The translations under genes were made by a program, and so were the position numbers. From Escherichia phage Ec_Makalu_003, in sequence record MN882349.1: 64,000 nt of DNA; one strand, given 5' to 3'. How positions within the stretch are numbered: position 1 is the first letter of the stretch; every line of letters begins with the position of its first letter. Below, piece by piece: positions 9,032-58,976 of this stretch. The notes below the pieces were generated by a model. The model did not search any database. It had not been told where the DNA came from and worked only from the letters and a program-made list of their open reading frames with translations.

Positions 9032-9549
9032 TGACAGAAACTAAACCTATGTTAAAATTTGTTGTTCCTGTAAAAAAATTAGAGATAAACGGGAAACATA
9101 TCAAGATCCCAAAAATGGGGATTAAGCAACATCGATTATTAAAAGATGTTCGTAGCTGTGATGAAACATTAAAGATTCTTCTTGATTCAATCTGTCCTGG
9201 GTTAAACGCTGCCGAGTCTGAATTGGTTATGCTTAACCTTTGTGCGTTTAACGGTAAGTGTCTGGAAGAAAAAGATGGTCTTAAGCTGTCTGATGTGTAT
9301 ATTTGTACAGAGACTGAATTTACTTTAAATGGTAAAGTCTTTAAATTTAAAAATCCAATGTATACTTCTGACCCCATTATCGATGACGCTGATTTCTTGA
9401 GTCATCATTATCACGATCCTAGTGTAGACTTCCATGATTTCCCAGCTTTTATTATGGATTGGGCTACAGGATTAAGAAAAACTATTGCGCTGGATACACC
9501 GGAAGGTACTATCTATGGTGGAATTAACATATTGGATCGCCTATCATGA
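9031..9549 (+). CDS. 28: baseplate hub distal subunit gp28
   Basis: 172 aa; ATGA-type coupling with gp27 and gp29. Confidence 0.7.
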   Translation: MTETKPMLKFVVPVKKLEINGKHIKIPKMGIKQHRLLKDVRSCDETLKILLDSICPGLNAAESELVMLNLCAFNGKCLEEKDGLKLSDVYICTETEFTLNGKVFKFKNPMYTSDPIIDDADFLSHHYHDPSVDFHDFPAFIMDWATGLRKTIALDTPEGTIYGGINILDRLS

Positions 9550-11279
9550 ATGACGCATTAACATCATTTCGCGGGATGCGCAAGGAAGCGGAAGAAAACC
9601 CGATTGATAAACTTAACAAATTAGATAAACTTGATTCTATTGATAATTTGCAAGCCGCGACCGAATTGGTAGCGGAGACAGTAGAACAAAAATCTAATGA
9701 AGTTGTTGGTGCGGTAGAGGATAACACCGCAGCCAACGAATTGACGGCAGAAAATACACAATCTACCGCTGGCAATACCCAAAAAACTTATGAAGAATTG
9801 CAAAAACTCAATAATTTCTCTTCTCAGATGAATGAGAAATTACGTGGTTTTGGTGTTATGATGGAACGTAGATTTGGTGTTGTCAGTAAAATGGCTAGTG
9901 GTATTGGTGCGATTGAAGAAGCACTGAAAAAACCGGAACAACCGCAAACAATGCCATCACCTCAGCCAGTTTTGCCTACTGTACCTGAACAGCCTAATAA
10001 TGACAACTATCAAGGTCTTCCAAAGAAAAAACCAGATGTTGATGACCGAAAGAAAAAGAACGCCACAGATAAGCGTAATGCGGATTCTATGGAAAATCTT
10101 CTTAAAGTTGTTCGTGGAGGATTTAAAGAAACCATAGGTATCTCTAATAAGGTCTTAGGGATGTTATTTAAGATCACTTTGACCGCTATGGCAGAAGCCG
10201 CAAAATGGGGTGCTATTTTGATGGGTATTGTTTTTGTCATTGATACCCTGATGGTTCATTTCAGATATTGGAGCGATTTATTCGAGACAAAATTCAGTGA
10301 ATTTATGGATAAGGCCGGAGATTGGGCTGGTCCTATTAGCGATATTTTAACTACTGTTCGTCAGGTTAGAGATTATTGGTCTAAAGGAGAATATAAAGAA
10401 TTAATTAAATCGCTGGTTATGGGTATTGGTGATGCATTCTATAAAACCTTTATCCAACTTGATCGAATTATCACTACTGGTATTGCTAAAATTCTTCGCA
10501 TGATCCCTGGTATGGGTGATTATGCCGATAATTTAGAATACGGTGCTTTAAAGTCTGCTGTTGCTAAAGGCTATAAGCCAAATGACCGAGAACTCGAATT
10601 AATGGATAAGATCGAGTCTGAACACGAAGAAGACAAATATGGAGAGCGCACAGGATGGACAGGAAAAGCCCGTGATATTGGCGAGGCCATAGGCGAATCT
10701 ATTAAAGATAAATTTAATGAAGGTCTTGTTAGTCTGGGCTGGAGAGATCAAAAGGATGTTGACGCAGAGAAACGACAAGAAGAATTAAAACGCGGGGAAT
10801 ACAAGTCTGTTTCTGCTGAACAACGATCTGCTAGTCGTAAACTTAAAATTAAAAGCGAGGGAGCGATCAATAATATTAATGAAGTTATGGAGAATTTGAG
10901 CGGTGACTATGACAAAGAAAGAATGGAAGAGTTGAAAAAGGATATTGATGTTTACCGTGAGCAAGTTCAAGATCCTACATTAGTTGAAAGTGATCGTTCT
11001 CAGTTAGAGCGTCTTATTGAAAAATTTGATGAGATGTATGCTGATAAAACTAAGGGTGTGGTTCCAACTAATCCTGTTCCTGCAACTGAAACGGAAACAG
11101 CAAAACAAGCGGAACGTACTGAACAAATGCAGAAACAAGCTGCAATCCAGCAACAAACGACAAATCAGACCTCAAACGTAAATAATACACAAATTGTAAC
11201 AAACAATAGAACTATTAAACAGGGTGCACCAACAACTAGAATTGATGCCCCCGGTACAATTAATATGGGGAACTTTTAA
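9546..11279 (+). CDS. 29: baseplate hub / tail length determinator gp29
   Basis: 577 aa; size and position as T4 gp29; hydrophobic central segment. Confidence 0.75.
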   Translation: MNDALTSFRGMRKEAEENPIDKLNKLDKLDSIDNLQAATELVAETVEQKSNEVVGAVEDNTAANELTAENTQSTAGNTQKTYEELQKLNNFSSQMNEKLRGFGVMMERRFGVVSKMASGIGAIEEALKKPEQPQTMPSPQPVLPTVPEQPNNDNYQGLPKKKPDVDDRKKKNATDKRNADSMENLLKVVRGGFKETIGISNKVLGMLFKITLTAMAEAAKWGAILMGIVFVIDTLMVHFRYWSDLFETKFSEFMDKAGDWAGPISDILTTVRQVRDYWSKGEYKELIKSLVMGIGDAFYKTFIQLDRIITTGIAKILRMIPGMGDYADNLEYGALKSAVAKGYKPNDRELELMDKIESEHEEDKYGERTGWTGKARDIGEAIGESIKDKFNEGLVSLGWRDQKDVDAEKRQEELKRGEYKSVSAEQRSASRKLKIKSEGAINNINEVMENLSGDYDKERMEELKKDIDVYREQVQDPTLVESDRSQLERLIEKFDEMYADKTKGVVPTNPVPATETETAKQAERTEQMQKQAAIQQQTTNQTSNVNNTQIVTNNRTIKQGAPTTRIDAPGTINMGNF

Positions 11280-12337
11280 TGAAAATTAGTGTTATCAATG
11301 ATGCCGTTGATAGCTTTAAAGCGGGGGTTAAAACCTCCGCTGGTTTTACCTCAAAAAATAAAGGGAAAACATTAACCGCTCAATTCCCCGCTGAACGTGC
11401 TAGCGGTAATGATGCTAGCGGTTATTATATCAACGACTTATATAATAATGGTCTGTTATTCACTGCATACGATTATACATCTCGTACTACCGGATCGTTG
11501 CGTGATTTCAGGAAAAAGAAAAATGTTGCTAGTGGTTTTGGTGGTAGCGTTAATATCGCTGGTTTTGATTTAAATTTGGGTGGAAGAAATGCTGCATTTG
11601 ACCGAGAGGCAATTGCTAATATTCTTCTTCCTCGTAGTCAATCTGACGTTGACGCTGCTAGCCATAAGTTTAATGATGTTGGTGAATCTGTTATTTCTCG
11701 CGGTGGTGGTACTTTAGGGGGTGCTCTTTCTAATATGGCATCTACTGCCGTTTTTGGTGGTATCGAAAGTATTACTGGTGGATATCTTGCCGATCACGGT
11801 GAACAGATTTATAATACTGCTCGAAGCATGTATGCTGGTGCTGACGCACGAACTAAAAACTACGTATGGCATCTAACCCCACGTAGTATTGAAGACCTTC
11901 GCAATATTCTAATCATATACGAAACGTTTTTAGAATTGTCTTATGGTTCTAGTGGTATTTCCAGCACCGCAAAAGAATTAAAAGCGGAAGTTGATGCGTG
12001 GTATAAAAATACACTATTGAGAAAATCCACCCCAGAGGAAGCGAAGAGAAATGATACTCTGTTTGAAGGGATCACCGATTTTCTATCAAACGTAATTACT
12101 GTATCTAACCCGACAATATGGATGATCTCTAACTTCGGCAAGCGTACATCGTTTGAAGGGCGTAGCGATGCATTTGGTCCCGCTCAGATCTCAAGTGTAC
12201 GTCTGGACAAGTCGCCTGATGGTAAGTTTAATGGCCTTGCTATTTCTCCTAACTTGCCGAGTACCTTTGTTCTGGAAGTATCATTTAGAGAGATCTTGAC
12301 ACTTTCCCGTGGTACTATATTTGGGAGTGCGGCATAA
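11279..12337 (+). CDS. 48: baseplate tail tube cap gp48
   Basis: 352 aa in T4 order. Confidence 0.75.
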   Translation: MKISVINDAVDSFKAGVKTSAGFTSKNKGKTLTAQFPAERASGNDASGYYINDLYNNGLLFTAYDYTSRTTGSLRDFRKKKNVASGFGGSVNIAGFDLNLGGRNAAFDREAIANILLPRSQSDVDAASHKFNDVGESVISRGGGTLGGALSNMASTAVFGGIESITGGYLADHGEQIYNTARSMYAGADARTKNYVWHLTPRSIEDLRNILIIYETFLELSYGSSGISSTAKELKAEVDAWYKNTLLRKSTPEEAKRNDTLFEGITDFLSNVITVSNPTIWMISNFGKRTSFEGRSDAFGPAQISSVRLDKSPDGKFNGLAISPNLPSTFVLEVSFREILTLSRGTIFGSAA

Positions 12338-13269
12338 TGTTTGATTTAAATGACTTTAACGAACAAGCCGCTAACCTTGACTTTCAGCGATCTAACTTAT
12401 TCAGCGTGGCATTTGCCACCACTCCAAGTAATAAGACACAAGCGATCCTAGAAAGTATGGGCGGTGCGGTATATGATATTATACCAAATGCATTAAATGA
12501 CTATTTCGGGATTACTCGTGGTGATTATACTGACGCATTAACAAATCTTGCTGTACAGGGTGTTAGGCGTGCTGTTGATTCATCCGGTGTCAAAAAGTAT
12601 CTTTTAGGTGCAATGTCATCCCGCGTAGTTCAATCTCTTCTGGGGCAATTTGATGTTGGTACATATGCGCTTGACTGGTTCAATATGGCATATAAGACAA
12701 GCGGTCTTCTGGTGTATGCTGTTAAGGTTCCAGAAAACAGATTGAATTATGAAATAGACCGCAACCACAATGCGCCAAACATTCGAATTACGGGACGTGA
12801 TTTTGATCCGCTTGTATTGAGCTTTAGAATGGACTCTAGCGCATCAAACTATAGAGCAATGCAGGATTGGGTTAACTCAGTAGAAGACCCCGTTACAGGG
12901 CTTCGTGCGCTTCCTGTTGACGTTGAAGCAGATATTCAGGTTAACTTACATAACCGAATGGGAGTTCCTCACACGATCATGATGTTTAATGGTTGTGTTC
13001 CTGTTGGTGTGAGTGCACCGGAATTAACCTATGAAAATAACAACGAAATTACAACATTCGATGTTACTTTTGCGTATAGGACTATGCAAACTGGTGCTGT
13101 AGGAGAGCAAGCCGCGCGAGAATGGATTGAGGATAAGGCAATAAACGCAATAACAAACACTTTCGGCAACAATTTACTTGATAGTGGGTTATCTGCTGCT
13201 GGTAATGCTTTATCGCGTCTAAATGGCGTCGGTGGGCGTGTGGTGAATACTGTCACTAACTGGTTCTGA
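12337..13269 (+). CDS. 54: baseplate tail tube initiator gp54
   Basis: 310 aa; last gene of the hub block. Confidence 0.75.
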   Translation: MFDLNDFNEQAANLDFQRSNLFSVAFATTPSNKTQAILESMGGAVYDIIPNALNDYFGITRGDYTDALTNLAVQGVRRAVDSSGVKKYLLGAMSSRVVQSLLGQFDVGTYALDWFNMAYKTSGLLVYAVKVPENRLNYEIDRNHNAPNIRITGRDFDPLVLSFRMDSSASNYRAMQDWVNSVEDPVTGLRALPVDVEADIQVNLHNRMGVPHTIMMFNGCVPVGVSAPELTYENNNEITTFDVTFAYRTMQTGAVGEQAAREWIEDKAINAITNTFGNNLLDSGLSAAGNALSRLNGVGGRVVNTVTNWF

Positions 13270-13277
13270 TAAGCGAA

Positions 13278-13310
13278 AGGCGGGGGACAATCCCCCGCCT
13301 TTTTATTTTG
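13278..13310. terminator. bidirectional rho-independent terminator
   Basis: aggcgggggacaatcccccgcct hairpin with T-runs on both sides. Confidence 0.6.
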
Positions 13311-13788
13311 CTAAATCATTGCAATATTTTAGTGCCTTAGTTTGAAACTCTGCGCTGTTAAGTTCTTCATAACGGTCATAATCACCGTTTAATGCTGCCT
13401 TTCTTGCTTCTTGTTCTATCTGCATGTCAGACATGATAATACAACGATCCCGCGATTTCATCTTCTCAAGTTGTATAGACTCTTCTTGTTGCTTGCGCAA
13501 TTCTTCTTGATGCTTCTTTTCTTCTCGTGCTTTCTCTTCCCGCGCTTCTTTGATTGCATCTTTGAACATCTGCGTTTGTGGTGCTAAACCAACTTTAACG
13601 CGATCCACGTCTCGACGTTCCATTTTAGAAATAAAACATGATTCGATCTGGTCATCGCTTGCATATGCTGCTTTACATTCACGAAGCAAGAAAACCGGAT
13701 CTGATTTAGCATTCATCATAGCTTCCATGTTAGTACAACCAGTAAGCATGAATGCAGCCGCAAGACCAATCAGTTTAATCATTTTCAT
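13303..13788 (-). CDS. lipoprotein, 161 aa
   Basis: signal peptide with lipobox LTGC; charged coiled-coil-like C-terminus. Confidence 0.6.
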   Translation of the reverse strand: MKMIKLIGLAAAFMLTGCTNMEAMMNAKSDPVFLLRECKAAYASDDQIESCFISKMERRDVDRVKVGLAPQTQMFKDAIKEAREEKAREEKKHQEELRKQQEESIQLEKMKSRDRCIIMSDMQIEQEARKAALNGDYDRYEELNSAEFQTKALKYCNDLAK

Positions 13789-14609
13789 TTAGTCACCTCA
13801 CCGAAAATTGTAAATTGTCTACGATTCTCATCGCCGAAAGATTCTACTACGTCGTTTACCTTGATGCAAGTCCCGCGCGGTAAAATTACTTCACATTCGC
13901 AAGGATTCCATGCAATAGACCCAACAACAAAACCTTTATGATCTTTTACGTCAATTACCCATGATACATTACAAGAATGTTGCATCTTTCCGGTCATTGA
14001 TTCATATCGATTCTCACAATAAAGGCTAGTGCTGTTTGAAAGCCATCCTCCAAAGATGATCGGTGTCATGCTGGTCGATACAAAGTTTTTAAAGGTAAAT
14101 TCCTTATCTTCAATAATACGCTCTATTGTCTGAATGTCAAGATGTTGACCGCGATAAAGAGTACCGTTTAACTTTTCGGTTTTATCCATGACACAATCCA
14201 TCAAATCGACAATCTCTGATATCTCATCGGTCATGTCTTCTTCCCCTAAGAGAGCACCATTTACCCATTCGTATTGTTCAGACACATAATCGCAGATTGC
14301 ATTATATTCTGCTGGGGTTATGTTGTTATGTTTGTAATGTTTGAATACATTATCTCCAAAATCTTCGGAATGTACTTCATACATCACATTAATGATTTTC
14401 TTGACAAATCCATAATCTTGCGTTTCTCGCTCAAGGAAACGGATAACTTTCACGTAATCATCAAAGTTAATATGATCGCTGATCATTTCAGTGATCATGT
14501 AACCATTAATCCCCTCAATGCCATATGTTTCGATGTAATTATCCATACGTTCCATCATTGATTCGCGTGATTCTTCGGAAAGGCGAAAATCCTGTAATTT
14601 CTTGAACAT
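13785..14609 (-). CDS. Alt-like ADP-ribosyltransferase paralogue
   Basis: R-S-E triad: LYRGQ, FVSTSMTPIIFGGW, CECEVILPRG, parallel to the motifs in the adjacent Alt. Confidence 0.7.
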   Translation of the reverse strand: MFKKLQDFRLSEESRESMMERMDNYIETYGIEGINGYMITEMISDHINFDDYVKVIRFLERETQDYGFVKKIINVMYEVHSEDFGDNVFKHYKHNNITPAEYNAICDYVSEQYEWVNGALLGEEDMTDEISEIVDLMDCVMDKTEKLNGTLYRGQHLDIQTIERIIEDKEFTFKNFVSTSMTPIIFGGWLSNSTSLYCENRYESMTGKMQHSCNVSWVIDVKDHKGFVVGSIAWNPCECEVILPRGTCIKVNDVVESFGDENRRQFTIFGEVTK

Positions 14610-14624
14610 TTTAAATCTCCCATA

Positions 14625-14660
14625 TAACAGAAAACGGGGCTAGTATAAAACTAGTCCCCG
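14625..14660 (-). terminator. terminator-like hairpin after alt
   Basis: perfect 10-bp stem cggggctagt/actagtccccg followed on the minus strand by a U-rich run. Confidence 0.5.
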
Positions 14661-14687
14661 TTTGAGTCAACCATTATTTCTTAAAAA

Positions 14688-16739
14688 TTACATTTTAAAT
14701 TTATCCGGCATAGCGTCTACAGACACAAGATCAGCGATAAGCTGACGTAGAGTTGCCTTATCTGCTTTCTTACGTTCGGTTTTAGCTTCGGTAATGAAGC
14801 TGGAGAAAGACAGGTCAGAAGCAGGTTTAACAACACCTTCACGGATGAATGCATCACCGTCCGCGATCATCTCACCAGATTCTTGTAATGCTGCCAGTTC
14901 ATTTTTGTTCATAATATGTGCCTCAATGTAATAAGTTTCTTGTGAATCCGTCGATGCCGTAGCACGAGTTACCGTATCAAAGGATAACACAACACCGCGA
15001 GGAAGTAAAATCTCGCATTCTTTGTAAGCAAATGCTTTGTTACCTACTGGCAATACAGGGATGTTTTCCGCGCCAGCAATGGAGAAAGCAACATTAGCGC
15101 CACCTTCACCGCGAGATCCAGCCATAGAATCAACACCAGCAACGGCACTAGCCACGTTTGCATTCCATCCACCAAAAATATTAGGTGCAAGGGAAGTGCT
15201 CACATAGTTTTTAAAGTAAAACGCTTTTTGCTTACGTGCAGTTTCCCACATTTGAGAACGGAAGTCCATACCACGATACAAGATAGTACCTGGATCAAGT
15301 TTAACACCATAGTTAGCAAATGCGTTATCCAGTGCATCACACATCTTGACCAATTCTTCTGGGTCTGCGATGCCTTCAAACTCTTCCAGCTTACGGTCGG
15401 TTAGGAAGTTGTTCATATTGATGTATGCTGCATCCGCATATTCGCTCAACACAAAACCTTCCGCGCCAGGCAGATCAAGATCAATATCTGCCATCATTTC
15501 ACCCATGTTGCTAGCAATTGCTTCAAACATACCGGAAGCAACATTACGCAGGGCATCGGTTTTAATCTGCGTGATGTGACTACGCAGCATTTCAGCTTTT
15601 ACATCTGCTGGCATAGACTGGTCGACGCGATCCATTGCCAGGGCGGTGATCTTGTTTTCGAATACTTCCTCGCTCATGATTTCTTTTAAGCGTTTGATTG
15701 ATGCTGCGATAACTTCCGCAGACAACGGATCATATTGATCCTGAACTTTTACCAGTTCGCTTACTGCATATTTTGCATCGGCTTCGCTTTCAAAAATAGT
15801 ACGCATGAAACCATAGCGAGTGATAATATCACTTGTCCAGTCATTCAGAGAACGGGCGGTTGAACGTTCTAAGGCTTGACGGTCAATCAGAGTATTAAAC
15901 TGTTTCTTAGGTTCTGCTTCGGTGATATCTTCTTCCGGTTTAAGATTAATTTTTTCTGGATGATTCACATAGTCGCTGTTATAGGTCGCTTGAGTTTTCA
16001 GCATTTCTTCTTTAGTCAAACGAGATTTAGCCGCTACGCGTTGTTCTGCTTCCGCGTTTCGTTCTTCTTCCGACACAAGACTAGCCGCATACGCCTCATC
16101 TTTAGTCAGAGATTCACCAGTAGCCTTAGATACCCAGCGATCACCTAAATCACTTTCTACTTTAGTGAACAGGGATTCATCGAGTTTAATCCCTTTAATC
16201 TTATCAATCGCCATCCCGCGACGTTTGACAACAACTAAAGCGATCTTTTTGCTGGTCATTACTTCCTGCTGGAATACTTCAAACTTCGGTGTACGACGCA
16301 CCAAACGCTCTATAACGCGCTTAACCAGTTCGGTCTTACCTTTCATGCGGGATACGTTAAAACGGAACATAACAGCGTCTAATTGCGCTTTACGGGCTGT
16401 TTCCATGACCACATCAAAAGCACTTGACATAACTGCAATCGGGTTATCTCCTAGACCATTTTTAAGCTGTACAATACGACCGCTTTTGTTCATTTCGCAC
16501 AGTACAACATGTGCGGTCTTGTCACCCATACGAATGATTTTAGGTGTTTTGTTGGTGAAGTTACAAAGACGGACAATCACATCTTTATCGCGTGTCTGTA
16601 CTGCAAAAAGCTGTTTAGGATTCTGCTTAGGCTTTAAGCACTGTACCGGAGCAATACTGCCAAAGTTTTCTTCCTCTTCCGTCAACAGCCATTTCTCGAA
16701 AGATTCAATCATTAGATCGTCGATTTCTAAGTTAAACAT
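14688..16739 (-). CDS. alt: Alt ADP-ribosyltransferase
   Basis: 683 aa (T4 Alt is about 682); R-S-E motifs LYRGMDFR, YVSTSLAPNIFGGW, KECEILLPRG; T4 position. Confidence 0.8.
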   Translation of the reverse strand: MFNLEIDDLMIESFEKWLLTEEEENFGSIAPVQCLKPKQNPKQLFAVQTRDKDVIVRLCNFTNKTPKIIRMGDKTAHVVLCEMNKSGRIVQLKNGLGDNPIAVMSSAFDVVMETARKAQLDAVMFRFNVSRMKGKTELVKRVIERLVRRTPKFEVFQQEVMTSKKIALVVVKRRGMAIDKIKGIKLDESLFTKVESDLGDRWVSKATGESLTKDEAYAASLVSEEERNAEAEQRVAAKSRLTKEEMLKTQATYNSDYVNHPEKINLKPEEDITEAEPKKQFNTLIDRQALERSTARSLNDWTSDIITRYGFMRTIFESEADAKYAVSELVKVQDQYDPLSAEVIAASIKRLKEIMSEEVFENKITALAMDRVDQSMPADVKAEMLRSHITQIKTDALRNVASGMFEAIASNMGEMMADIDLDLPGAEGFVLSEYADAAYINMNNFLTDRKLEEFEGIADPEELVKMCDALDNAFANYGVKLDPGTILYRGMDFRSQMWETARKQKAFYFKNYVSTSLAPNIFGGWNANVASAVAGVDSMAGSRGEGGANVAFSIAGAENIPVLPVGNKAFAYKECEILLPRGVVLSFDTVTRATASTDSQETYYIEAHIMNKNELAALQESGEMIADGDAFIREGVVKPASDLSFSSFITEAKTERKKADKATLRQLIADLVSVDAMPDKFKM

Positions 16740-16806
16740 TTTATATCCTCTAGTTGATAACCTATAAACCTATATTTATGAAAAAGGGGCTTAACACCCC
16801 CATTTA

Positions 16807-17019
16807 TTATAATGCACCATCGAGCAATTGCTCTAAGGTGTATCCTGAATAGTCTTTTTCAATCAGGATATATTTTCCTACTCGTTTAATACAACCGCGC
16901 ATTTCAACGTATTCTGCGTAGTTGATGGTGCGAGTTGTTCCATCTTCTAGTAAAGCAGTACCGATTTCGTTAATGCGGTCATAAGTTACGTCGGTAATGA
17001 TGATTTCGATGTTAGCCAT
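16807..17019 (-). CDS. hypothetical protein, 70 aa
   Basis: ORF directly downstream of the PeSL promoter at 17050-17084. Confidence 0.45.
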   Translation of the reverse strand: MANIEIIITDVTYDRINEIGTALLEDGTTRTINYAEYVEMRGCIKRVGKYILIEKDYSGYTLEQLLDGAL

Positions 17020-17049
17020 TTGATACTCCTTAGTAGTTCGTTTCGGTAT

Positions 17050-17084
17050 GGGTGTATTATGATATACACCCTCTGTTATGTCAA
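17050..17084 (-). promoter_or_regulatory. early promoter with stem-loop (PeSL-like)
   Basis: minus strand reads TTGACA, then palindrome GGGTGTAT..ATACACCC around CATAAT, then conserved leader with AGGAG. Confidence 0.6.
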
Positions 17085-17090
17085 CAACTT

Positions 17091-17270
17091 TTAGAACATT
17101 TTTGAAATTAATTCTGCTTTGATTTCGCAGAGAACATCTAAAGATTTCTCGTCACCCGCTTTTGCTGCTTCTGCTTGCATTTTTGAAATGGCTTCAATGT
17201 CAGTGCAATTATAAGCCGCTTGAACTTTAGCGATTGCGATGATTGCCGATTCGATGGTTAAGTGTTTCAT
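17091..17270 (-). CDS. hypothetical protein, 59 aa
   Basis: ATG at 17270 preceded by AGGAGAATCAAAC; downstream of the PeSL at 17303. Confidence 0.4.
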   Translation of the reverse strand: MKHLTIESAIIAIAKVQAAYNCTDIEAISKMQAEAAKAGDEKSLDVLCEIKAELISKMF

Positions 17271-17338: not shown

Positions 17339-17857
17339 TTAGTTATTTTTTAATTGCTCATCTTGCAATAATGCAATCACATGCTGGCGATGTTCTTCCG
17401 ATTGAGGAACACCGAAAAAGTTTGTTTTGTAGAAATACTCTAATCGGTCTTCTCGTGTGCTCTCTTCCATCATGATCGCGGGTAGTCCAAGATTTCGGAA
17501 ACGTCGCTTTTCTGCTGGCGTAAAATCACTGTAATACAACATAGAATCATCATTACCAGCAATGCTAAACTCATCCTTCATAAAGGAGAATATTGCGTTT
17601 AAACGCTGTTTACCGTCCACGATTTCGATCTCATAGCGAGAGCCATCATCAATCTTAGCCATTGCGATAGCACCAACCGGAAAATCATTAATCAGGTTTT
17701 CGATAAACATACGTTTGTTTTCGGTGTCCCATACCAAAGGACGCTGATAATCTGGGTTCATGTTGATATAGCCATCTTCTAACCACGCCTCATAAACAGA
17801 GATGACAAAGTTTTTAGTATTGGTATAGTAACGGCGTTTAGGCGTTAAACGGTTCAT
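17339..17857 (-). CDS. DUF262 / ParB-like (DGQQR-type) domain protein
   Basis: motifs DYQRPLVWD and VDGKQRL; ATG at 17857 with AGGAGA inside the upstream gene end (track start 17893 is a TTG). Confidence 0.6.
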   Translation of the reverse strand: MNRLTPKRRYYTNTKNFVISVYEAWLEDGYINMNPDYQRPLVWDTENKRMFIENLINDFPVGAIAMAKIDDGSRYEIEIVDGKQRLNAIFSFMKDEFSIAGNDDSMLYYSDFTPAEKRRFRNLGLPAIMMEESTREDRLEYFYKTNFFGVPQSEEHRQHVIALLQDEQLKNN

Positions 17858-17858
17858 G

Positions 17859-18191
17859 TTATAGTCTCCTGAATGGATCATCACGTAAATCAATATCTTT
17901 TAAGAACTCATCCCATGAATGGCGGATAATGTTCTTAATTCTCCAGATAAGCGCAGGGATTGAACGCTCTCCCATCTGGAAGTAAGGATCATATGATCCA
18001 TATGCCCAATATGCTACTACAATTCCACAATCGGCGCAATAATATTCTATTTCACTTGCTGGCGACCAAAGTCCATCAATATGATCACGGATCTTGCTTT
18101 CGATGTTATGGCTATGGCAATCAGGGCAACGGATGCAATGACCTTGTTTATCGTAATTTGACGTTAGCGAATACTTAAACAATCTCATCAT
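17859..18191 (-). CDS. zinc-ribbon protein, 110 aa
   Basis: CIRCPDCHSH...YYCADCG; coupled to both neighbours. Confidence 0.5.
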   Translation of the reverse strand: MMRLFKYSLTSNYDKQGHCIRCPDCHSHNIESKIRDHIDGLWSPASEIEYYCADCGIVVAYWAYGSYDPYFQMGERSIPALIWRIKNIIRHSWDEFLKDIDLRDDPFRRL

Positions 18192-18904
18192 AGATCCTTA
18201 TTGGCTTCAAATACTGCCTTTGCGAATCCTCGCGGGGTAAGTGACCTGATAGTCTTTGTTCTGGTTCCTTTCCCGCCTAGCTTAGAATGCTGTTTACTGT
18301 ACCCTTTATTAATCTGCAACGGTTTCTTTTCTGGCATTATAAAGCCTTGTCCGGTCCATAAGCAAGTCTTTTTCGGGTACATATCACGGGCGGCAATATA
18401 CTCAGGAAACGTAGGATGCTTATCATCTTCCGGCAAATAACCGCCATATTCCCACGGATGGAACATGTAATCAGGCTTACGCCACATGCTAGAGATAACG
18501 CTTACAGGATTCTCTATCATGTAGGGAACTCCTAGCCATTCACCCAAATAAGCGGTTATTTTAGCTGCCCTTACATCATGAACTTGAATTAATGGTCCTT
18601 GTTCTCGTTTCTTTCGTTCAAAGTGCGCAGCGCCACTAACAGCTAAATTGGTGCATGGTGGGAATGCAAAGATAATATCCGGTTTCCCCCATTCAAGGTC
18701 CATTGCTCTTTCCAGCCAATTTAAATCAATCCATGTGTTTACATATGTAATGTTTGGATGTTCAAATCTGGTATTATATTTTTTGTATGTACCGTGGTCG
18801 CCATCGTCAGCATTAAAGCAGATCACCTTATGACCTGCTTTAGCCCATTCTAACCCCATTATCCCCGATCCGTCAAAGTTGCAGAATATTAATTTTTGTT
18901 TCAT
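18188..18904 (-). CDS. minimal C5-methyltransferase-fold protein
   Basis: motif I-like FCNFDGSGIMG, motif IV-like FAFPPCTNLAVSG, motif VI-like YMIENP; only 238 aa with no obvious target-recognition domain. Confidence 0.55.
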   Translation of the reverse strand: MKQKLIFCNFDGSGIMGLEWAKAGHKVICFNADDGDHGTYKKYNTRFEHPNITYVNTWIDLNWLERAMDLEWGKPDIIFAFPPCTNLAVSGAAHFERKKREQGPLIQVHDVRAAKITAYLGEWLGVPYMIENPVSVISSMWRKPDYMFHPWEYGGYLPEDDKHPTFPEYIAARDMYPKKTCLWTGQGFIMPEKKPLQINKGYSKQHSKLGGKGTRTKTIRSLTPRGFAKAVFEANKDL

Positions 18905-44702: not shown

Positions 44703-47700
44703 ATGGCAGATTTTTCTCAACATTTCAAGGCCACATTTGGCTTTGACGCTGGTAATGAAAAGGTCGTCAATGTAGCATTGGCTGATAAGAATGTCAACAC
44801 CGATGCGGTCAACGTTGAATTTTTCAATTACCATAATGGTATTACTCAGTATGACACAACTCGCGGTTATGATCAATACGGAACTACAATCTATCAAAAC
44901 CGTCCGTATTATGCAAAAGAAGATATCACAAAGCCAGCAGGTGATTTTGACCCGACTAAATGGCAAGCACTGCGCACGGACCCACGTTGGGATTATATTG
45001 CAGCAACTTCCGGTGATACTCCTTTACAGTCTGGTGATTATATCGCAGCAGATGGTCAATTTGCAAACTTGACTTTCTCTATGCCATCTAAACCAGCAGA
45101 GGGGGACACTATAACAGTAAAAGATATCGGTGGCAAGTGTGGTGTTAACGAATTATCGTTCTTGAGTTCAGGACATGAGTTTTATCATAACGGTAATGTG
45201 TATAACCGAAAATGGTATTGCACTACCCCGTATGCAATGAACTATTTCATCTTTGTTCGTAATCGTTGGCATGTTTATCAGACAGGAACAGAGCCACGCG
45301 GTGTGTACGCACAGCCAGCGATTGATGCTATTCAAATGCAGAATGGTGATCAGGTATTTCGTCGTAGTTCTTTGGGTAATATTACCTTAGTGCTTCCTAA
45401 GTTTGCCAACAATGGCGACATGATCCAGACTACAGACCTTGACGGATTAACCGCAACCAACCACGTTACGGTTAAAGTTCATGAGCACGCAGAAGAACAA
45501 TCAATTGGCACGTCCGGTCTAAAAGAGATTATCGGTAAGCGTAGCGGTCATGGTGTATTCATCTTTGACAAGACGGAAAACTTATGGCGTTTGTGGGATG
45601 GTGATCAGTCTGTTCGTCTTAAACCGATCATCGATGACACTCGCTTGCAACCTAATAGCTATGTTGCCGTATTTGGTGATCGTGATGTTACTCTGACGCT
45701 GCCGACCAATGTCGAGCCGGGTGATCGTATTCAAGTTTCTATGCAGTATATGCACGGAAACCAGAATTGCCGTATTATCACCGCCACAGAGGATACAAAA
45801 ATCCTCATGTCGAAAAACATGGTTCAGTTTCCGAAGCGTAGCGAGTACCCATTCAACGGGACCGACACATGGAAGGAAGTGTCTGAATTGTCGTTCAATG
45901 CGGCTAGTGATTATGTACCTTATCTGGAGTTCTCTTATTCAGAAGGTGATGATGGTAAGAAACATTGGCTGGTAGCACACTCTCATCCGATCGTCGAACG
46001 AGTAGACCCTACTCGTAAAGATCGTGTTGGTGTCATTGCACTGGCTACCCAGACTGAAACGAATAAAAACCATGAAGAGAATCCTAGCGACGAAGTTGCC
46101 GTAACACCAAAAATGCTGGCTAATAAAACAGCCAACGAAACTCGACGCGGTATTGCTCGTATTGCTACTCAGGCGGAAACGCATCAAGATACTGGTTCCA
46201 GCTTCCTGGATGATGTTATCGTTACACCTAAAAAGTTAAATGACTGTGTTGCTACCGAAGCCCGTCGTGGTGTGATGGAAATTGCAACCCAGCACGAAAC
46301 CAATGAAGGTTTAGACGATACACGCGCTATTACTCCTAAGAAATTAGAAGAACGTCGCGCTTCCGAAGACCTCGCTGGTATTGCTGAAATTGTTCAGGTA
46401 GGCGGTCGTGCTGCCGCTCGACGTGGTGAAGCTGGTACAGGGATCTATAACATCAATGACCATGCTAAAATTGTTACACCACAAAACATCAACGAGGTCA
46501 AGGCGACCGAAACTTCCCGTGGTGTTGGCTATCTGGCAACTGACGCGGAAGTGCAAGGGGCTACAGAATCAACCCCGCAAGATGCTTTACTAATCACGAC
46601 TCGCACGCTAACGAAACGTACTGCTACCGAATCGCGCACTGGTATCGCTGAAATTGCAACTCAGGAAGAAACAAACTTAGGTCAAAGTGATAACCATATC
46701 ATCACGCCTAAAAAGCTGCATACTCGCCGTGCGACGGAAACTCTACACGGTTTAGCAGAAATTGCAACTCAGCCGGAATTTGACGCAGGTCTTGACGATG
46801 CTCGCATTTCTACCCCATTGAAGATTAAAACCTTCTTTGAGAATGCACAGCGTTTGAAAGTAGATCCGACTCAGGGGCTTAACCTTACTGGTGATTTGTG
46901 GCAAGGTATCATGATCAGCGGTCTGGACGCAACCGAAGACACAAAAGGTGTCGCTAAAGTTGCTACTACTCAGCTTACTGACGCTGGTCAAGATGATACT
47001 ACAATCATCACGCCTAAAAAGCTGCAAGGCAAAAAGGCCACCGAAGGTAAAGAAGGTATTATCCGAGTTGGTACTCAAGCCGAAACCGTGGCTGGTACAC
47101 TGGCTAATGTAGCAATTTCTCCGAAGAACTTCAAATATGTTGTTCAGACAGAGGATACATGGAAAGCAACCGAAGCTCGTCGTGGTTTCTTGAAAGTTGC
47201 TACTCAGGAAAACTGTTTTGTTGGTGACAATCTGCAAGGTTCTACTCAAGAACTAGGAAACTATCAGCATGACGGAATTGCTGTTACTCCGAAAGGATTA
47301 AACTACGCACTTGCTAATTTCTTGCCTAAGATGGCAACCGCTCAGAATAGTTTGAAATTGGGTAACGTAGAGGCCGCTAAATGGGCGCGTAGAGACATTG
47401 ACCAGACCATAGAGAGCAATTACACGTTTAATAAAAACGTTAACGTGAAGGGCGATTTAGAGTGCTTAAAATCAGGTTCCTTTGAAACTCTGTATGTGAC
47501 TAAGAACTCTACTGATGATCCGAGTAATGGTCATCTGGTGTTGGGTGAGCGTGGAGTTGACGGTCACACCGGAATTACTCTGCATGGCACAACCGCATCG
47601 GAAGGCATGAAAAACTCCTGGTCTATTATCGTTGGTGGTACTGGAACGGCGCAAGCAGTTAATAGTGGCGCTATCGCTTTCGGTCAAATCAATGATGGTG

Positions 47701-51379: not shown

Positions 51380-54322
51380 ATGGCAGATTTAAGCAGAATC
51401 CAATTTAAACGTACTAGCACTAAAGGCCGTCGACCTGATGCTGGTACGATGAATCCGGGGGAATTGGCAATCAACCTTGCGGATCAATATCTTCTTACTA
51501 AAAATGATTCCGGCGCTATTATCAATTTAAGTTGTCCTCCGGTTTATGACCGTGATGTTACAATGGCGGGTAAGGTTAAAGGAAATAATTATATTTTAAG
51601 TAAAACCGCCAATTATCTGGAAGACCAGACAGCGAGAGATCTTAACTACTTTGGTGCTTTCCGTACCAATAGTCTAGATGGACTCATGGATCTAACCCTT
51701 AACGTTCCTCACTCTTCCGGTAAAGCGCATGGTCGAGGATTTACTTTCCGTTATGGGACTGGCGGATCTCGTGTTGAAACCTATGGTTTTGATGTTCAGG
51801 GACAAAAAGCATTTAGTTATAAAATGTATCATGAAGGGGATAAACCGACTCCCTCAGAATTGAACGTTTATAGCAAACAAGAAGTTGACCGTATGTTTGT
51901 TAAAACCGTTAAACTTGCTACAGTTCCTGTTGATATCGTTGACGGTTATTTTAAATTAGCAACTGCATTGATTCCGCAAAACGGTCGTAGTGTATTTTTC
52001 CGTATTCATGGTGGTAACGGATATAACGTTACTGCATACGATCAAGTTGATATTGTAGAAATTGTTATTCGCAGTGGAAATAATCGTCCTAAAGGTGTTA
52101 ACGTTATTGCATACCGCCGAAATACAAACAAAGCATTTGATGTTTTGGCTGTTAATACTTCTGGTGATAACTATGATATCTACGTGAAATATCAGCGTTA
52201 CACTGATAACGTTATTGTTGAATTTGGTAAAAGTGTTGATGTTGATCTGGTGGTTCATGACGTTCCAGACTTTGTTGTTGATCGTCCTGTTGGTGATAAT
52301 GTTATTGGCGGTCGCGCGGTAACTCTTTTTAACACCGAAAACAAACGAGGTGTGTTGAGTTTTGACGATAACACACAAAATAGTTATGATATTGTTCACT
52401 TGAGTAATGATAAAGGTACTGGAAGGAAATATATTCGTAAATTCCGTAGTAACTATAATGAAATGATCTGGCATGAGACGGTTCAAGGTTCCAGTTATCG
52501 ACTCGCCACGGGTAGTACAGATGCTCAGGAAATTATAACTATTGAATCTAGTAGCTCAATTGCTGGAACTCATAAAGGTAATATTATTTCTGGTCGTATG
52601 CTGTTAAATGGCGGATCTAATGCCATTACACTACGCCGACCTGCTGGTCAGTCTAATCATATCGCTTTTCAGGATAACCGCACCGGAGATATTACTCGTC
52701 AAGGATGGATCGGTTATGCAAACGCTGATACTAACGTTTTTGAATGGTATAGTGATGTAGGCGGTAGTTCTATTCGTCAACATATTGACGGCCAGATAGA
52801 ACTTCAAACTGGCAATATGAAGCGAGTTTATACTAACGCTCAATTCATCTCAATGAATAGCGACGCCTACCGTATGCTCTATGGTAATTATGGTGCATTC
52901 TGGCGTAATGACGGCGTTAAAGTTTATCTTCTTTCTACTGCCGAAAATGATAAATTGGGCGGATGGAATACTTATCGTCCATTCATTTATGATTTAACTT
53001 CCGGTAACGTTCAATTAGGTGGTGATGGTAACGAAGATGCATTAACTTTAGAATGTGCTTCTCGTGCCGCTCGCTTTAGTAATGACGTTTACATTAAGAA
53101 AGGGCATTTGACTTTCGATGCTGGTCGATTAAATTCTCGTGATTACTTCCGGTTTAACCATTGGGGTGATAGCAATAACGCCCGTGATAACATCCTACAG
53201 CTTGACGATAGCAAAGGTGCACACTTCACCACTGAACGTACTTTAGCAACTGGTGCGATTAGAACTAAATTCTTCGGTGATTTGGAAGCTGCTGGTCAAA
53301 TTAAATGGGGTAAAGGGACCGCCGCATCTACGTTTACTCTACGTGTATGGGGTAACGATAGTCGTAAACAAATATTTGAATGCGGCGATGAAAGCGGGTG
53401 GCATTGGTATACCCAACGCGCTGGCGGTCCAGATACTTCTGCAATTGAGTTTGCCATCAACGGTACTGTTAAGCCTCAAGCAATTCACACTGGCGGTAAT
53501 ATCACTATCAACGGTGCTGATATTGAGTTTAAACGCACTGGCAATAAGCACATCTGGTTTAGAGACCCGAACGGTTTAGAGTTAGGCTTGATGTACTGCG
53601 ATGATGCTGGTGCTATTCGCTTCCGTGGTCAGAAACAAGCCCAGGCGTGGAAATTTGCAGATAAAATGATCCAGTTGGAATCTGGCACTGTATCCGGTGG
53701 CGGTAATGGCCTGATTCGTGGTGAAGTTGCTGGCGGTAGTTGGGCTAGCTGGCGTGACCGTGCTGCTGGCCTTATGGTTGGGTGTCCTCAATCCGTTGAT
53801 TCGGCACATAACGTATGGAAAGCGACGCATTGGGGTAAATATCATATCGCAGCAATGGGTGTACATGTTCCTAGTGGTACGATTACCAATGCTTTAGCTC
53901 GCCTAAACGTTCATGACGCTAACTTTGACTTTAGCGCCTCCGGTGACCTGTCGGTAGGGCGTAATGGTTCGTTTAACGATGTTTATATTCGTTCTGATGC
54001 TCGCCTTAAAATCAACAAAGAAGAGTATAAAGAGAATGCCACCGATAAAGTTAATCGCTTGACGGTATACACCTATGACAAGGTTAAATCTTTAACCGAC
54101 CGCACTGTCATTGCTCATGAAGTTGGTATTATTGCTCAGGATCTTGAAAAAGAATTGCCGGAAGCAGTAACAACTTCTAAGGTCGGCGATCCTGATAAGC
54201 CAGAAGAGATCTTAACAATTTCTAACTCTGCTGTCAACGCTCTTTTAATTAAGGCGTTTCAGGAAATGAGCGAAGAATTGAAAGTCGTTAAAGCTGAACT
54301 AGCGGAACTTAAAAAGAATTAA
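51380..54322 (+). CDS. 37: long tail fiber distal subunit gp37 with C-terminal intramolecular chaperone domain
   Basis: 980 aa; C-terminal YIRSDARLKINKEEY...TVYTYDK resembles the S74 chaperone/autoprotease domain of phage fibres. Confidence 0.75.
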   Translation: MADLSRIQFKRTSTKGRRPDAGTMNPGELAINLADQYLLTKNDSGAIINLSCPPVYDRDVTMAGKVKGNNYILSKTANYLEDQTARDLNYFGAFRTNSLDGLMDLTLNVPHSSGKAHGRGFTFRYGTGGSRVETYGFDVQGQKAFSYKMYHEGDKPTPSELNVYSKQEVDRMFVKTVKLATVPVDIVDGYFKLATALIPQNGRSVFFRIHGGNGYNVTAYDQVDIVEIVIRSGNNRPKGVNVIAYRRNTNKAFDVLAVNTSGDNYDIYVKYQRYTDNVIVEFGKSVDVDLVVHDVPDFVVDRPVGDNVIGGRAVTLFNTENKRGVLSFDDNTQNSYDIVHLSNDKGTGRKYIRKFRSNYNEMIWHETVQGSSYRLATGSTDAQEIITIESSSSIAGTHKGNIISGRMLLNGGSNAITLRRPAGQSNHIAFQDNRTGDITRQGWIGYANADTNVFEWYSDVGGSSIRQHIDGQIELQTGNMKRVYTNAQFISMNSDAYRMLYGNYGAFWRNDGVKVYLLSTAENDKLGGWNTYRPFIYDLTSGNVQLGGDGNEDALTLECASRAARFSNDVYIKKGHLTFDAGRLNSRDYFRFNHWGDSNNARDNILQLDDSKGAHFTTERTLATGAIRTKFFGDLEAAGQIKWGKGTAASTFTLRVWGNDSRKQIFECGDESGWHWYTQRAGGPDTSAIEFAINGTVKPQAIHTGGNITINGADIEFKRTGNKHIWFRDPNGLELGLMYCDDAGAIRFRGQKQAQAWKFADKMIQLESGTVSGGGNGLIRGEVAGGSWASWRDRAAGLMVGCPQSVDSAHNVWKATHWGKYHIAAMGVHVPSGTITNALARLNVHDANFDFSASGDLSVGRNGSFNDVYIRSDARLKINKEEYKENATDKVNRLTVYTYDKVKSLTDRTVIAHEVGIIAQDLEKELPEAVTTSKVGDPDKPEEILTISNSAVNALLIKAFQEMSEELKVVKAELAELKKN

Positions 54323-54362
54323 GGAAACTCCCAGGGAAGGGAACTACTAAGGAGAAACGGCT

Positions 54363-54602
54363 ATGGTCTATAATATCGTCATTGGTGCTTTGTCTAATTT
54401 CGGAATGAAATTATTGTCAAAGTTAATTAGTGAAAAGATGCTCACTAAAATTTTCTTCTATTGCGCTCGTCGTCTTGCGGCTTATACCAATACGCCAATT
54501 GATGATCGTTTTGTGGAAGAACTTTATAAGGAGTTTAATAAAGATCAGTCAGAAGATAGTAACGAGCAAGATAAACCTAGTGATAGTCAACTACCTAAAT
54601 AA
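54363..54602 (+). CDS. hypothetical protein, 79 aa, in the gene 38 position
   Basis: hydrophobic N-terminal segment, acidic C-terminus; too small to be a gp38 adhesin. Confidence 0.4.
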   Translation: MVYNIVIGALSNFGMKLLSKLISEKMLTKIFFYCARRLAAYTNTPIDDRFVEELYKEFNKDQSEDSNEQDKPSDSQLPK

Positions 54603-54635
54603 GAGTACACTGTCATAGTTATCTTAGGGCATTAT

Positions 54636-55292
54636 ATGCAAGTTTCTGAAAAAGGGAAAGACTTTGCTATCTCAAATGTCCTGCGCGCTATTTTCACAAC
54701 TAAAAGCACGGAGTTGCTCGTACTTCGTGTTTTTGCTGCCGTCGTGTTGTCCATATTAGCATTTGTCGTTTATAGTAAAAACGAGTTATTCGCGCTTTAT
54801 AAAGAGACTCGTTATGAGACTTATGCTCACATTCTCCAGGTAGAGAAAGACCGCAATTTTGATAATGCAGCACAGGAGCAGTTACAGATAGTTCATGTAT
54901 CGGCTGATGCCGATTTTTCTGCTGTTTTTAGTTTTCGTCCGAAAAACCTAAACTATTTTGTTGATTTGGTGGCATATGAAGGAAAGCTACCGCATACAAT
55001 CGATGAAAAAAATTTAGGCGGATTCCCTATCAATAAAACGAGTGAAGAATATCGTAGGCATCTTTTAGGTAAATCATATTTTACCGATAAAGATTTCCAG
55101 TATATTCCATCAAGAGAAAAGAAATTAGAGAATATCGATATAGGTTTCATGTATTCTTGTCCTATATTCAATCTCGATAATGTCTATTCTGGTAGTATCG
55201 CCATTTCATGGAAGAATAAACCGGATATTGACATTGAGAATTTAGATACTCTTTGCAATCAATCTGCCAGAATCCTCGGAAGGATTAGATAA
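54636..55292 (+). CDS. t: holin
   Basis: 218 aa; single N-terminal TMD; LQIVHVSADADFSAVFSFRPKNLNYFVDLVAYEGKLP and MYSCPIFNLDNVY parallel T4 holin T. Confidence 0.85.
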   Translation: MQVSEKGKDFAISNVLRAIFTTKSTELLVLRVFAAVVLSILAFVVYSKNELFALYKETRYETYAHILQVEKDRNFDNAAQEQLQIVHVSADADFSAVFSFRPKNLNYFVDLVAYEGKLPHTIDEKNLGGFPINKTSEEYRRHLLGKSYFTDKDFQYIPSREKKLENIDIGFMYSCPIFNLDNVYSGSIAISWKNKPDIDIENLDTLCNQSARILGRIR

Positions 55293-58775: not shown

Positions 58776-58976
58776 CTAGTTTTTGTTATTTTCGTGAAAA
58801 TTTTTCGTCGCCTCATGTGCTTTTCGCTGGGCTTCTTGTTGTGCTTGCTGGCGTGCTGCCTCTTGTGAAGCCATAACGGAAGCATTTGCAGCAGTTACAG
58901 CCGCTACCATCGCTGCGGTATTAGCATTTACAGTACATGCACTAGCCAGCAAAGCAATTGCAATCATTTTCTTCAT
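58776..58976 (-). CDS. small secreted protein, 66 aa
   Basis: signal peptide MKKMIAIALLASACTVNA; Ala/Gln-rich mature part. Confidence 0.45.
   Translation of the reverse strand: MKKMIAIALLASACTVNANTAAMVAAVTAANASVMASQEAARQQAQQEAQRKAHEATKNFHENNKN

Follow-up and report, generated by a model that had tools for sequence, protein, structure and literature searches.

The window analysed here, 64,000 nucleotides (nt) of Escherichia phage Ec_Makalu_003 (sequence record MN882349.1), contains the alt locus of the phage, where the gene of a full-length Alt-type ADP-ribosyltransferase (ART) is followed on the minus strand by the gene of a second, short ART of the Alt family and by that of a putative lipoprotein. 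The three open reading frames (ORFs) stand tail-to-tail with the plus-strand baseplate genes 29-48-54 (9546..13269). They code for 683, 274 and 161 amino acids on the minus strand, at the coordinates given in a preliminary description of this DNA. The features of the locus, listed from the upstream side of alt, were the following:

16785..16801, minus strand: terminator-like hairpin with a T-run, between the upstream early ORF of 70 amino acids and alt (by folding)
16773..16780, minus strand: CATAAATA, a box resembling a T4-type late promoter, 33 nt ahead of the ATG of alt (by sequence)
14688..16739, minus strand: alt, full-length Alt-type ART, 683 amino acids (by ORF, phrog_802, PF03496 and T4 Alt alignment)
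15012..15278, minus strand: catalytic motifs of Alt, YRG at 15278..15270, STS at 15200..15192 and ECE at 15020..15012 (by residue positions)
14642..14670, minus strand: sigma-70 early-type promoter of the short-ART/lipoprotein operon, TTGACT-17-TATACT, with 10/12 consensus matches
14629..14663, minus strand: intrinsic terminator of alt, a bulged hairpin of 11-13 bp followed by UUUUCU, overlapping the -10 element of the next promoter (by folding)
13785..14609, minus strand: short Alt-family ART, 274 amino acids, catalytic domain only (RB49p183 or RB49ORF183c; phrog_15144; by ORF, PF03496 and alignments)
13890..14156, minus strand: catalytic motifs of the short ART, YRG at 14156..14148, STS at 14078..14070 and ECE at 13898..13890 (by residue positions)
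13785..13788, minus strand: ATGA stop/start overlap of the short ART and lipoprotein genes, with GAGG 7 nt upstream of the ATG (by sequence)
13303..13788, minus strand: lipoprotein gene, 161 amino acids (RB49p182; phrog_16112), with a signal peptide and an LTGC lipobox at 13746..13735 (by ORF)
13275..13303, both strands: bidirectional terminator common to the lipoprotein gene and the convergent gene 54 (by folding)

Positions 13000-17100 shared 99.8% DNA identity with Escherichia phage Ec_Makalu_002, and for RB49, Phi1, JSE, GEC-3S and others the value was 97-98%; 58 Krischvirus records were found overall. The window is part of an RB49-like T4-type coliphage (genus Krischvirus, Straboviridae), and the region is its alt locus. 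In comparisons with other Krischvirus genomes, the ratio of non-synonymous to synonymous polymorphism (pN/pS) lay at 0.02-0.04 in alt, at 0.03-0.05 in the short-ART gene and at 0.13-0.16 in the lipoprotein gene. Since these values are low and each of the three genes was present in all of the 58 Krischvirus records, the ORFs are genuine genes and not chance ORFs.

Two transferases of the Alt family

The 683-amino-acid protein matched phrog_802 across residues 16-683 (E=1e-179) and the Pfam family PF03496 (ADPrib_exo_Tox) with 36 bits, above the gathering cut-off of 23.4, and it could be aligned to residues 15-679 of T4 Alt with 27% identity over 695 columns (E=1e-60). Both the conserved N-terminal region of Alt and its C-terminal tail are present: a domain homologous to that of T4 and T2 Alt is followed by the ART domain (approx. 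residues 398-610) and by a tail ending in MPDKFKM. The catalytic residues are Y488-R489-G490, S514-T515-S516 and E574-C575-E576, and the motif coordinates listed above were calculated from these residue numbers with the start codon at 16739. The gene is annotated as alt in the RB49 and GEC-3S records, and the protein is almost certainly the alt product.

The short ART reached 58.1 bits against PF03496, likewise above the cut-off of 23.4. The preliminary description had claimed that it retains the YRG, STS and ExE motifs, and all three could be located (Y152-R153-G154, S178-T179-S180 and E238-C239-E240) with the same spacing as in Alt, 25 residues from R to S and 60 residues from S to E. A substitution of the catalytic Glu, which had been named there as a reason for giving up this view, was not found, E238 and E240 both being present and family-invariant. 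In BLASTP the two transferases of the window could be aligned along 109 residues of their catalytic cores, with 37% identity (E=1e-16), and only positions 331-602 of phrog_802 were matched by the short protein, the own family of which is phrog_15144. Since its residues 70-274 align to residues 398 to approx. 610 of Alt in the profile-profile alignment, the short ART is, as judged from the alignment, essentially the catalytic domain of Alt, minus the N-terminal approx. 400 residues and the C-terminal tail of approx. 75 residues. Thus the architecture of a full Alt was not found in the 274-amino-acid protein, which is related to Alt in the catalytic domain only. That most of the N-terminal region of Alt is missing had been recognised correctly in the preliminary description; the absent part is residues 1 to approx. 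397. The different N-terminal region which it suggested for the short transferase was not found, and the C-terminal approx. 75 residues are gone as well.

Residues Y152, R153, G154, Q155, S178, T179, S180, E238 and E240 are invariant among the members of the short-ART family, which are 24-83% identical to the window protein, and R, STS and ExE are also present in the more distant copies of L020 and L019. Comparison of the family profile with solved structures retrieved C3, VIP2, iota-Ia, CDTa, Certhrax and Vis, with the YR and ExE residues aligned. In the AlphaFold2 (AF2) model of the short ART (predicted local distance difference test score, pLDDT, 80.4; predicted template modelling score, pTM, 0.76) the ART fold, a split beta-sandwich with N-terminal helices, could be recognised, and Foldseek matched this model to Vis, C3bot2, Certhrax, iota Ia and CDTa with a probability of 1.0 and template modelling scores of 0.6-0.7 on the target. 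ExE is the arginine-specific form in the R-S-E clade of mono-ADP-ribosyltransferases (mono-ARTs). On these grounds the short ART is very probably an active enzyme.

In the neighbour-joining tree of the catalytic domains, which included the window protein and four metagenomic relatives as short ARTs, the latter grouped into one clade in 200/200 bootstraps; every full-length Alt fell outside it, T2 Alt2 and the Alt encoded beside each short ART among them. Because of this single, separate clade the short form is an old, stable and monophyletic subfamily. It is under strong purifying selection. A recent copying of the neighbouring alt and an orthology with the second alt copy of T2 or T4 were both rejected by the tree. 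The short ART was also rejected as a Mod homologue (E>1 in BLASTP against T4 ModA and ModB); the single Mod-family gene of RB49 is RB49p014, next to srd, the product of which is 33% identical to T4 ModB (E=1e-9). Since there is a separate Mod gene and the short ART lacks Mod similarity, the RB49-type phages have three ARTs (Alt, short Alt and one Mod) as against Alt, ModA and ModB in T4.

Two metagenomic Alt-like proteins of reduced N-terminal length, P0048 (415 amino acids) and P0049 (316 amino acids), were also noticed. Unlike the short-ART family they keep the C-terminal tail of Alt (...KKFKM and ...EKFII, respectively). The catalytic region of P0048 is nearly identical to that of T2 Alt2, and P0048 may be a truncated gene call.

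The presence of an extra Alt-family gene at this locus had been recorded before. In the RB49 record RB49p183 is labelled "similar to C-terminal part of T4 Alt protein", two ADP-ribosyltransferases are annotated here in several records, and the W115 record adds a "putative lipoprotein". The T4T record describes alt.-1 and alt.-2 as remains of a second alt copy, and in T2 two full-length tandem alt genes are followed by an alt.-3 homologue. RB49ORF183c, 44RRORF188c and T4 alt.-1/alt.-2 have been listed as paralogous alt duplications (Nolan et al. 2006, PMC1524935). In view of these annotations, records and published paralogues, an additional gene of the Alt family in the interval from alt to gene 54 is a known trait of T4-type phages; the genes were annotated already, their paralogy is published, and the feature is ordinary for Krischvirus phages. 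The earlier reading of the locus as Alt, a truncated R-S-ExE paralogue and a lipoprotein agrees with the public annotation and the literature (PMC1524935), while the novelty that it implied does not stand, tandem alt paralogues being known in T2, T4, 44RR and RB49. The only fresh point is that the lipoprotein has very different alleles in otherwise near-identical phages. The present analysis adds the anatomy of the promoters and terminators, the finding that the short-ART subfamily is old, intact and strictly paired with the lipoprotein, and the allele cassette of the latter.

Transcription signals and gene order

At the place equivalent to that of the CATAAATA box, after the terminator, AATAAATA is found in the distant relatives L010 and L011. 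ATAAATA, the core of the late promoter, occurs 8 times in the window against 23.5 +/- 4.4 expected, i.e. it is about three-fold depleted, and all of the 8 copies are located 20-45 nt upstream of an ATG, e.g. before genes 34, 36 and alt. The sites found by the window scan, on both strands, are 3537(+), 3561(-), 5082(+), 7147(+), 16779(-), 27189(-), 44668(+) and 49779(+); their distribution looks as if stray copies were selected against. The hairpin upstream of alt is weak (folding free energy, dG, -9.7; z-score, z, -1.5). A terminator is annotated at this site in GEC-3S, and a stronger equivalent exists in L010. Since the late-type box of alt stands behind a terminator, we infer that alt is transcribed mainly late, as would be expected of the gene of a prohead-core protein.

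The gap between the stop codon of alt and the start of the short-ART gene is 78 nt and contains TTGACT-17-TATACT, at the same place where a promoter was annotated by the depositors of GEC-3S. TTGAC[AT]-17-TATACT is kept in L010, L013, L014 and L021, and TTGACA-17-TATGAT is found in L020; an ATAAATA box for the short ART was not found in the window scan. The hairpin of the alt terminator has a dG of -18.9 kcal/mol and a z of -6.3 (none of 200 shuffles folded equally well). Its conservation extends to L010, L013 and L014, where two base pairs of the stem were exchanged in a compensatory manner. The short ARTs of the relatives that share this composite of promoter and terminator are only 43-63% identical.

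The two signals were seen to be interlocked, the TATACT -10 element lying in the loop and the 3' arm of the alt terminator hairpin. By sequence comparison the interlocked composite was located at 5937-6000 in L010, 1769-1841 in L013, 1769-1898 in L014 and 442-512 in L021. With this arrangement read-through from alt would be stopped, and a new transcript, begun approx. 7 nt downstream of the -10 element, would carry no 5' arm of the hairpin, hence it would not terminate itself.

The preliminary description had placed a lipobox lipoprotein after the paralogue, with an ATGA overlap of start and stop, and this was borne out: the sequence reads ...ACT AAA TGA, with ATG AAA ATG in the overlapping frame. 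In GEC-3S the shared terminator at 13275..13303 (dG -22.9, z -5.4) is annotated for either strand. It would end an early operon made up of the short-ART and lipoprotein genes. Wherever the context could be recovered, and across all divergence levels (L010-L013, L019-L021), the gene order was constant: Alt, short PF03496 ART, lipoprotein, convergent gene 54. The junction between the ART and the lipoprotein was tight in all relatives (-8 to +1 nt).

Further upstream of alt, also on the minus strand, a DUF262-domain protein (17339-17893, annotated in W115) and a protein of 238 amino acids (18188-18904), annotated as a DNA methyltransferase in RB49 (RB49p189), are encoded. Both are early genes, possibly connected with DNA modification or anti-restriction.

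The lipoprotein and its alleles

The N-terminus of the 161-amino-acid protein (MKMIKLIGLAAAFMLTGC) carries a canonical L-T-G-C lipobox after a basic n-region and a hydrophobic h-region; the signal (MKMIKLIGLAAAFM-LTGC) fits the bacterial lipoprotein pattern [LVI][ASTVI][GAS]C, and the lipobox is kept in all family members. Residue +2 is Thr in the window protein and Ala or Ser in the other alleles, and it is never Asp. According to the Lol sorting rule of E. coli, lipoproteins with a +2 residue other than Asp go to the outer membrane, and sorting to this membrane is predicted here from the +2 residue. In all likelihood the protein is a lipidated envelope protein. Its mature part consists of 143 amino acids, and four cysteines are invariant across all relatives. 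The AF2 model (pLDDT 87.6) is all-helical, with a helix of 62 residues (72-133), the first 45 of which are rich in Glu, Lys and Arg. Disulfides are predicted for the pairs C38-C51 and C116-C156. The annotation reads "putative lipoprotein" in W115 and "Lipoprotein" in UniRef for KFS-EC, and no studies on this protein were found in the literature search. No similarity could be detected to T4 Sp, Imm or Alt.-3, which were tried as homologues; T4 Alt.-3, encoded at the same position, is no lipoprotein. The profile search of 1.84 billion representative proteins yielded only 11 clusters, with no member of known function; nine of these are of 155-174 amino acids, P0037 is a partial sequence of 103 and P0058, at E~1e-4, has 1252. 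The lipobox and the four cysteines were present in 8/8 of the cluster members retrieved.

A second small lipoprotein-like ORF (MKKMIAIALLASAC..., 66 amino acids) was noticed at 58776-58976 on the minus strand, in the early region near the rIIB side. Its tail is rich in Ala and Gln and looks helical, and no function is annotated for it.

The lipoprotein gene is found at this position in 58 of the 58 Krischvirus records. In 8 of these, however, the protein is only about 30% identical to that of the window, while the adjacent ART is 98-100% identical. At least three alleles could be distinguished:

Allele A: 50 records, including the window and RB49
Allele B: 2 records, JK32 and Whisky
Allele C: 6 records, AV108, E26, PHB13, G37-3, 011D4 and PTE-Eco09

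The mature part of allele A is 24-28% identical to those of B or C. Its identity with the L010 orthologue is 38%, above that of A with B or C, though the L010 ART is only 45% identical. In the DNA alignment the identity is approx. 99% until the middle of the signal-peptide codons and then drops sharply; in E26 the high identity is regained at the stop codon and the terminator. Purifying selection acts on the gene within allele A (pN/pS 0.13-0.16). The lipoprotein gene is thus always kept, yet exchanged as a cassette. Because of this, the pattern argues for an important but target-variable function, and it speaks against a physical partnership in which lipoprotein and ART would co-evolve.

In the phages with allele B the divergence runs into the 3' end of gene 54 (309 amino acids vs 310), so that the exchanged segment included part of this structural gene; the divergent patch covers 2040-2160 of Whisky (L007) and 2043-2160 of JK32 (L009), as aligned to window positions 13150-13270. 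In the E26 record (L008, MN655998.1) the allele-C lipoprotein ORF at 1501-2010 is intact and was left out of the annotation.

A covariation of the lipoprotein allele with the tip of the gp37 tail fibre was also considered, and no one-to-one link was found; the comparison was coarse, being made on the DNA identity of the gp37 tip region. The distal tip itself is highly mosaic among the Krischvirus phages. The region concerned, window 52800-54640, comprises the 3' part of gene 37, the small ORF that follows and the beginning of the holin gene t. Ec_Makalu_002, 99.8% identical at the alt locus, matches only 51% of it, at 89.9%, while RB49 (OZ035808) and Phi1 match it fully, at 95-96%, and some relatives have a gp38-type adhesin there. 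In RB49 (L016, NC_005066) a gp38-like adhesin gene, RB49p079, is located at 45367-46143 on the minus strand, in the early region far from the tail-fibre cluster.

Proposed roles and comparison with known systems

Taking the locus as a whole, we favour, with somewhat better than even confidence, a scheme of a late, packaged Alt, an early, unpackaged short ART and an envelope-acting lipoprotein. The locus would consist of two transcription units. In the first one alt would be shielded from the upstream early transcription by the terminator and made late by means of the CATAAATA box. Alt would enter the prohead core by its specific N-terminal region, as in T4, and after injection with the DNA it would ADP-ribosylate arginines of host proteins. 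T4 Alt is an injected, head-internal arginine ADP-ribosyltransferase, for which RNA polymerase alpha is the precedent target. The T4 protein (gpAlt) is found in the prohead core in about 40 copies, and its N-terminal peptide is cleaved by gp21 (PMC9958956); no virion proteome of a Krischvirus phage was found in the literature search. In the second unit the strong sigma-70 early promoter, interlocked with the alt terminator, would drive the bicistronic operon. The short ART, as an active arginine-specific mono-ART, would be synthesised de novo within minutes of infection and would not be packaged, so it would be Mod-like in architecture and timing and Alt-like in ancestry. This early and unpackaged state is probable. 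The different packaging of the two transferases, raised as a possibility in the preliminary description, gains indirect support from the promoter classes of their genes. The lipoprotein would be translationally coupled to the short ART and would place a disulfide-stapled helical domain on a long charged helix in the periplasm, where, independently of the ART, it may protect the cell, once infected, at its envelope from secondary or competing phages (superinfection exclusion). Since the lipoprotein appears to be early and envelope-located, and is always retained and allele-swapped in near-identical phages, such a protective, exclusion-type function is the role that fits best, and it is put forward tentatively. 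Homologues of T4 Imm and Sp could not be detected in approx. 85% of an RB49-type genome, and the RB49 annotations list none.

A number of observations weigh against this scheme. The CATAAATA box differs from TATAAATA at the first base, and since the terminator before alt is weak (z -1.5), early read-through may also produce Alt. An LxE motif of the gp21-site type is present near the N-terminus of the short ART (L10-S11-E12), so by sequence packaging is possible. The strict co-occurrence of the short ART and the lipoprotein could be plain vertical inheritance within one clade. As regards the lipoprotein, Foldseek gave no match at E<=0.001 against the PDB and only the own family in BFVD, and neither the window protein nor its alleles gave anything above threshold in Pfam, NCBIfam or PHROG. 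The sub-threshold matches were the Cor signal peptide, Lpp/OprI and TimA, that to phrog_1119 (Cor; E=0.008) covering residues 1-45, i.e. the signal peptide only. Finally, the gp37 tips of Whisky and PHB13 are approx. 92% identical to that of the window, while their lipoproteins are approx. 30% identical to it, and allele A is found together with many tip types and with gp38-type adhesins, so the alleles do not track the gp37 tip.

Packaging of both transferases, with the short ART also injected, as presumably the two Alt copies of T2 are, is an unlikely alternative. The two full-length tandem alt genes of T2 stand at the same locus, the short ART belongs to the Alt and not to the Mod family, and the LxE tripeptide at residues 10-12 would be in line with it. 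However, the short ART lacks the entire N-terminal region of Alt that is conserved from T4 to Krischvirus, its gene is preceded by a conserved early sigma-70 promoter of its own and not by an ATAAATA box, and it is not orthologous to T2 Alt2.

It is similarly doubtful that the lipoprotein is a mask of the Llp (T5) or Cor (T1/phi80/N15) type, which would attach from the periplasmic side to the outer-membrane receptor used by the phage itself, and so block superinfection and protect the progeny from debris. An early lipoprotein of the predicted outer-membrane type in a lytic phage, multiple divergent alleles, a pattern known for receptor-specific Llp-like proteins, and the weak Cor match speak for it, as does the RB49-like long gp37 tip seen in 6/8 of the non-A records vs roughly 16/50 of the A-allele records, figures uncorrected for relatedness. 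Yet the Cor match is confined to the signal peptide, with no homology of the mature part, no fold match was obtained among solved structures, and the gene lies approx. 40 kb away from the receptor-binding fibre gene instead of being adjacent to it. Moreover, closely similar gp37 tips are found with each of the three alleles, and allele A is combined with very different tips and gp38-type adhesins too.

Less probable still is a functional pair, in which the lipoprotein would be an immunity or regulatory partner of the short ART, or the ART would act on envelope biogenesis. Strict co-occurrence and tightly coupled or overlapping frames in every recovered context would agree with such a pair, whereas the predicted compartments differ (the ART has no signal peptide and the lipoprotein is exported), the mature lipoprotein was replaced by alleles of approx. 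25% identity while the ART stayed 98-100% identical, and all the occurrences are in one phage clade, in which co-occurrence may be inheritance.

We give hardly any credence to a lysis component, an o-spanin or an Lpp-like tether affecting the timing of lysis. The long helix of this predicted outer-membrane lipoprotein is of about Lpp length, and allele B reached 21.5 bits against the Lpp/OprI alanine-zipper family, under the cut-off of 43. RB49, however, has its own spanin pair, pseT.2/pseT.3, and the o-spanin features were not found in the 143-amino-acid mature protein, which is helical and not proline-rich; the spanin assignment was therefore rejected. The neighbouring gene encodes an ART, no i-spanin is encoded alongside, and the protein lacks a C-terminal transmembrane segment. 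Finally, the view that the 274-amino-acid gene is a functionless, decaying remnant of a duplicated alt, as the deleted and frame-shifted second copy at the same position in T4 (alt.-1/alt.-2) might suggest, can practically be dismissed because its frame is intact in 58 genomes, its pN/pS is 0.03-0.05, its catalytic residues stay unchanged even in family members with only 24% identity to the window protein, the AF2 model shows a complete ART fold, and the subfamily is monophyletic and old.

Returning to the favoured scheme of a late Alt, an early short ART and an exclusion-type lipoprotein, the Krischvirus phages carry a natural, catalytic-domain-only Alt which is ancient, strongly conserved and apparently expressed early. 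Comparison of the short ART with the full-length Alt of the same phage would reveal the role of the N-terminal approx. 400 residues in packaging or target choice, and would show whether an Alt-family enzyme took over a Mod-like job. A never-lost gene with alleles of approx. 25% identity in phages of approx. 98% identity is typical of phage-phage or phage-host conflict, and the lipoprotein would be an easy target for exclusion assays in phages used for therapy cocktails. It is conceivable, if speculative, that it founds a new class of polymorphic, envelope-acting determinants of exclusion or "immunity type" in RB49-like phages. Such a determinant would be a helical, disulfide-stapled protein, carried by a spacer helix in the periplasm and tethered to the outer membrane, and its interchangeable alleles (A, B, C and more) would determine by which related phages an infected cell can be superinfected; as it would be fixed in one early operon with a free-standing Alt-type ART, host takeover and exclusion would be switched on together.

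Llp (T5), Cor (T1, phi80, N15) and Spackle of T4 are envelope proteins which the phages encode and make early, as the lipoprotein described here would be. Of these, Llp and Cor belong to the outer-membrane lipoproteins, while Spackle is periplasmic, small and helical and contains a disulfide. There is no sequence or fold relationship between these and the lipoprotein, which exceeds Llp or Cor two to three times in size and is not encoded beside the receptor-binding gene.

The bacterial mono-ART toxins (C3-like, VIP2, iota-Ia, CDTa, Certhrax, Vis; PF03496) have the fold and the R, STS and ExE motifs in common with the short ART; the identity, however, is only 13-20%, the toxins are secreted while the short ART would be an intracellular effector of the phage, and the N-terminal helical region (1 to approx. 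95) and the insert 187-207 are specific to the short-ART family. T4 ModA and ModB, which are early, unpackaged proteins of approx. 200 amino acids, are proposed as a working analogy only: they are also small, catalytic-domain-only R-S-E ARTs with early promoters, but no sequence similarity to the short ART is detectable (E>1).

The 683-amino-acid protein and T4 Alt are orthologues, with the same length, three-part layout and R-S-ExE residues, and their genes take the same place between gene 54 and the early genes on the ligase side, but the sequence is strongly diverged and alt stands here behind a terminator and the CATAAATA box. The second alt copies of other T4-type phages (T2 Alt2, T4 alt.-1/alt.-2 and 44RR ORF187c/188c) are located, like the short-ART gene, directly downstream of alt and before the convergent gene 54. 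In T2 this copy is of full length (685 amino acids) and has the Alt N-terminus, and in T4 it is broken by deletion and frame shift, whereas the Krischvirus copy is an intact, stable, catalytic-domain-only form of 274 amino acids with an early promoter of its own.

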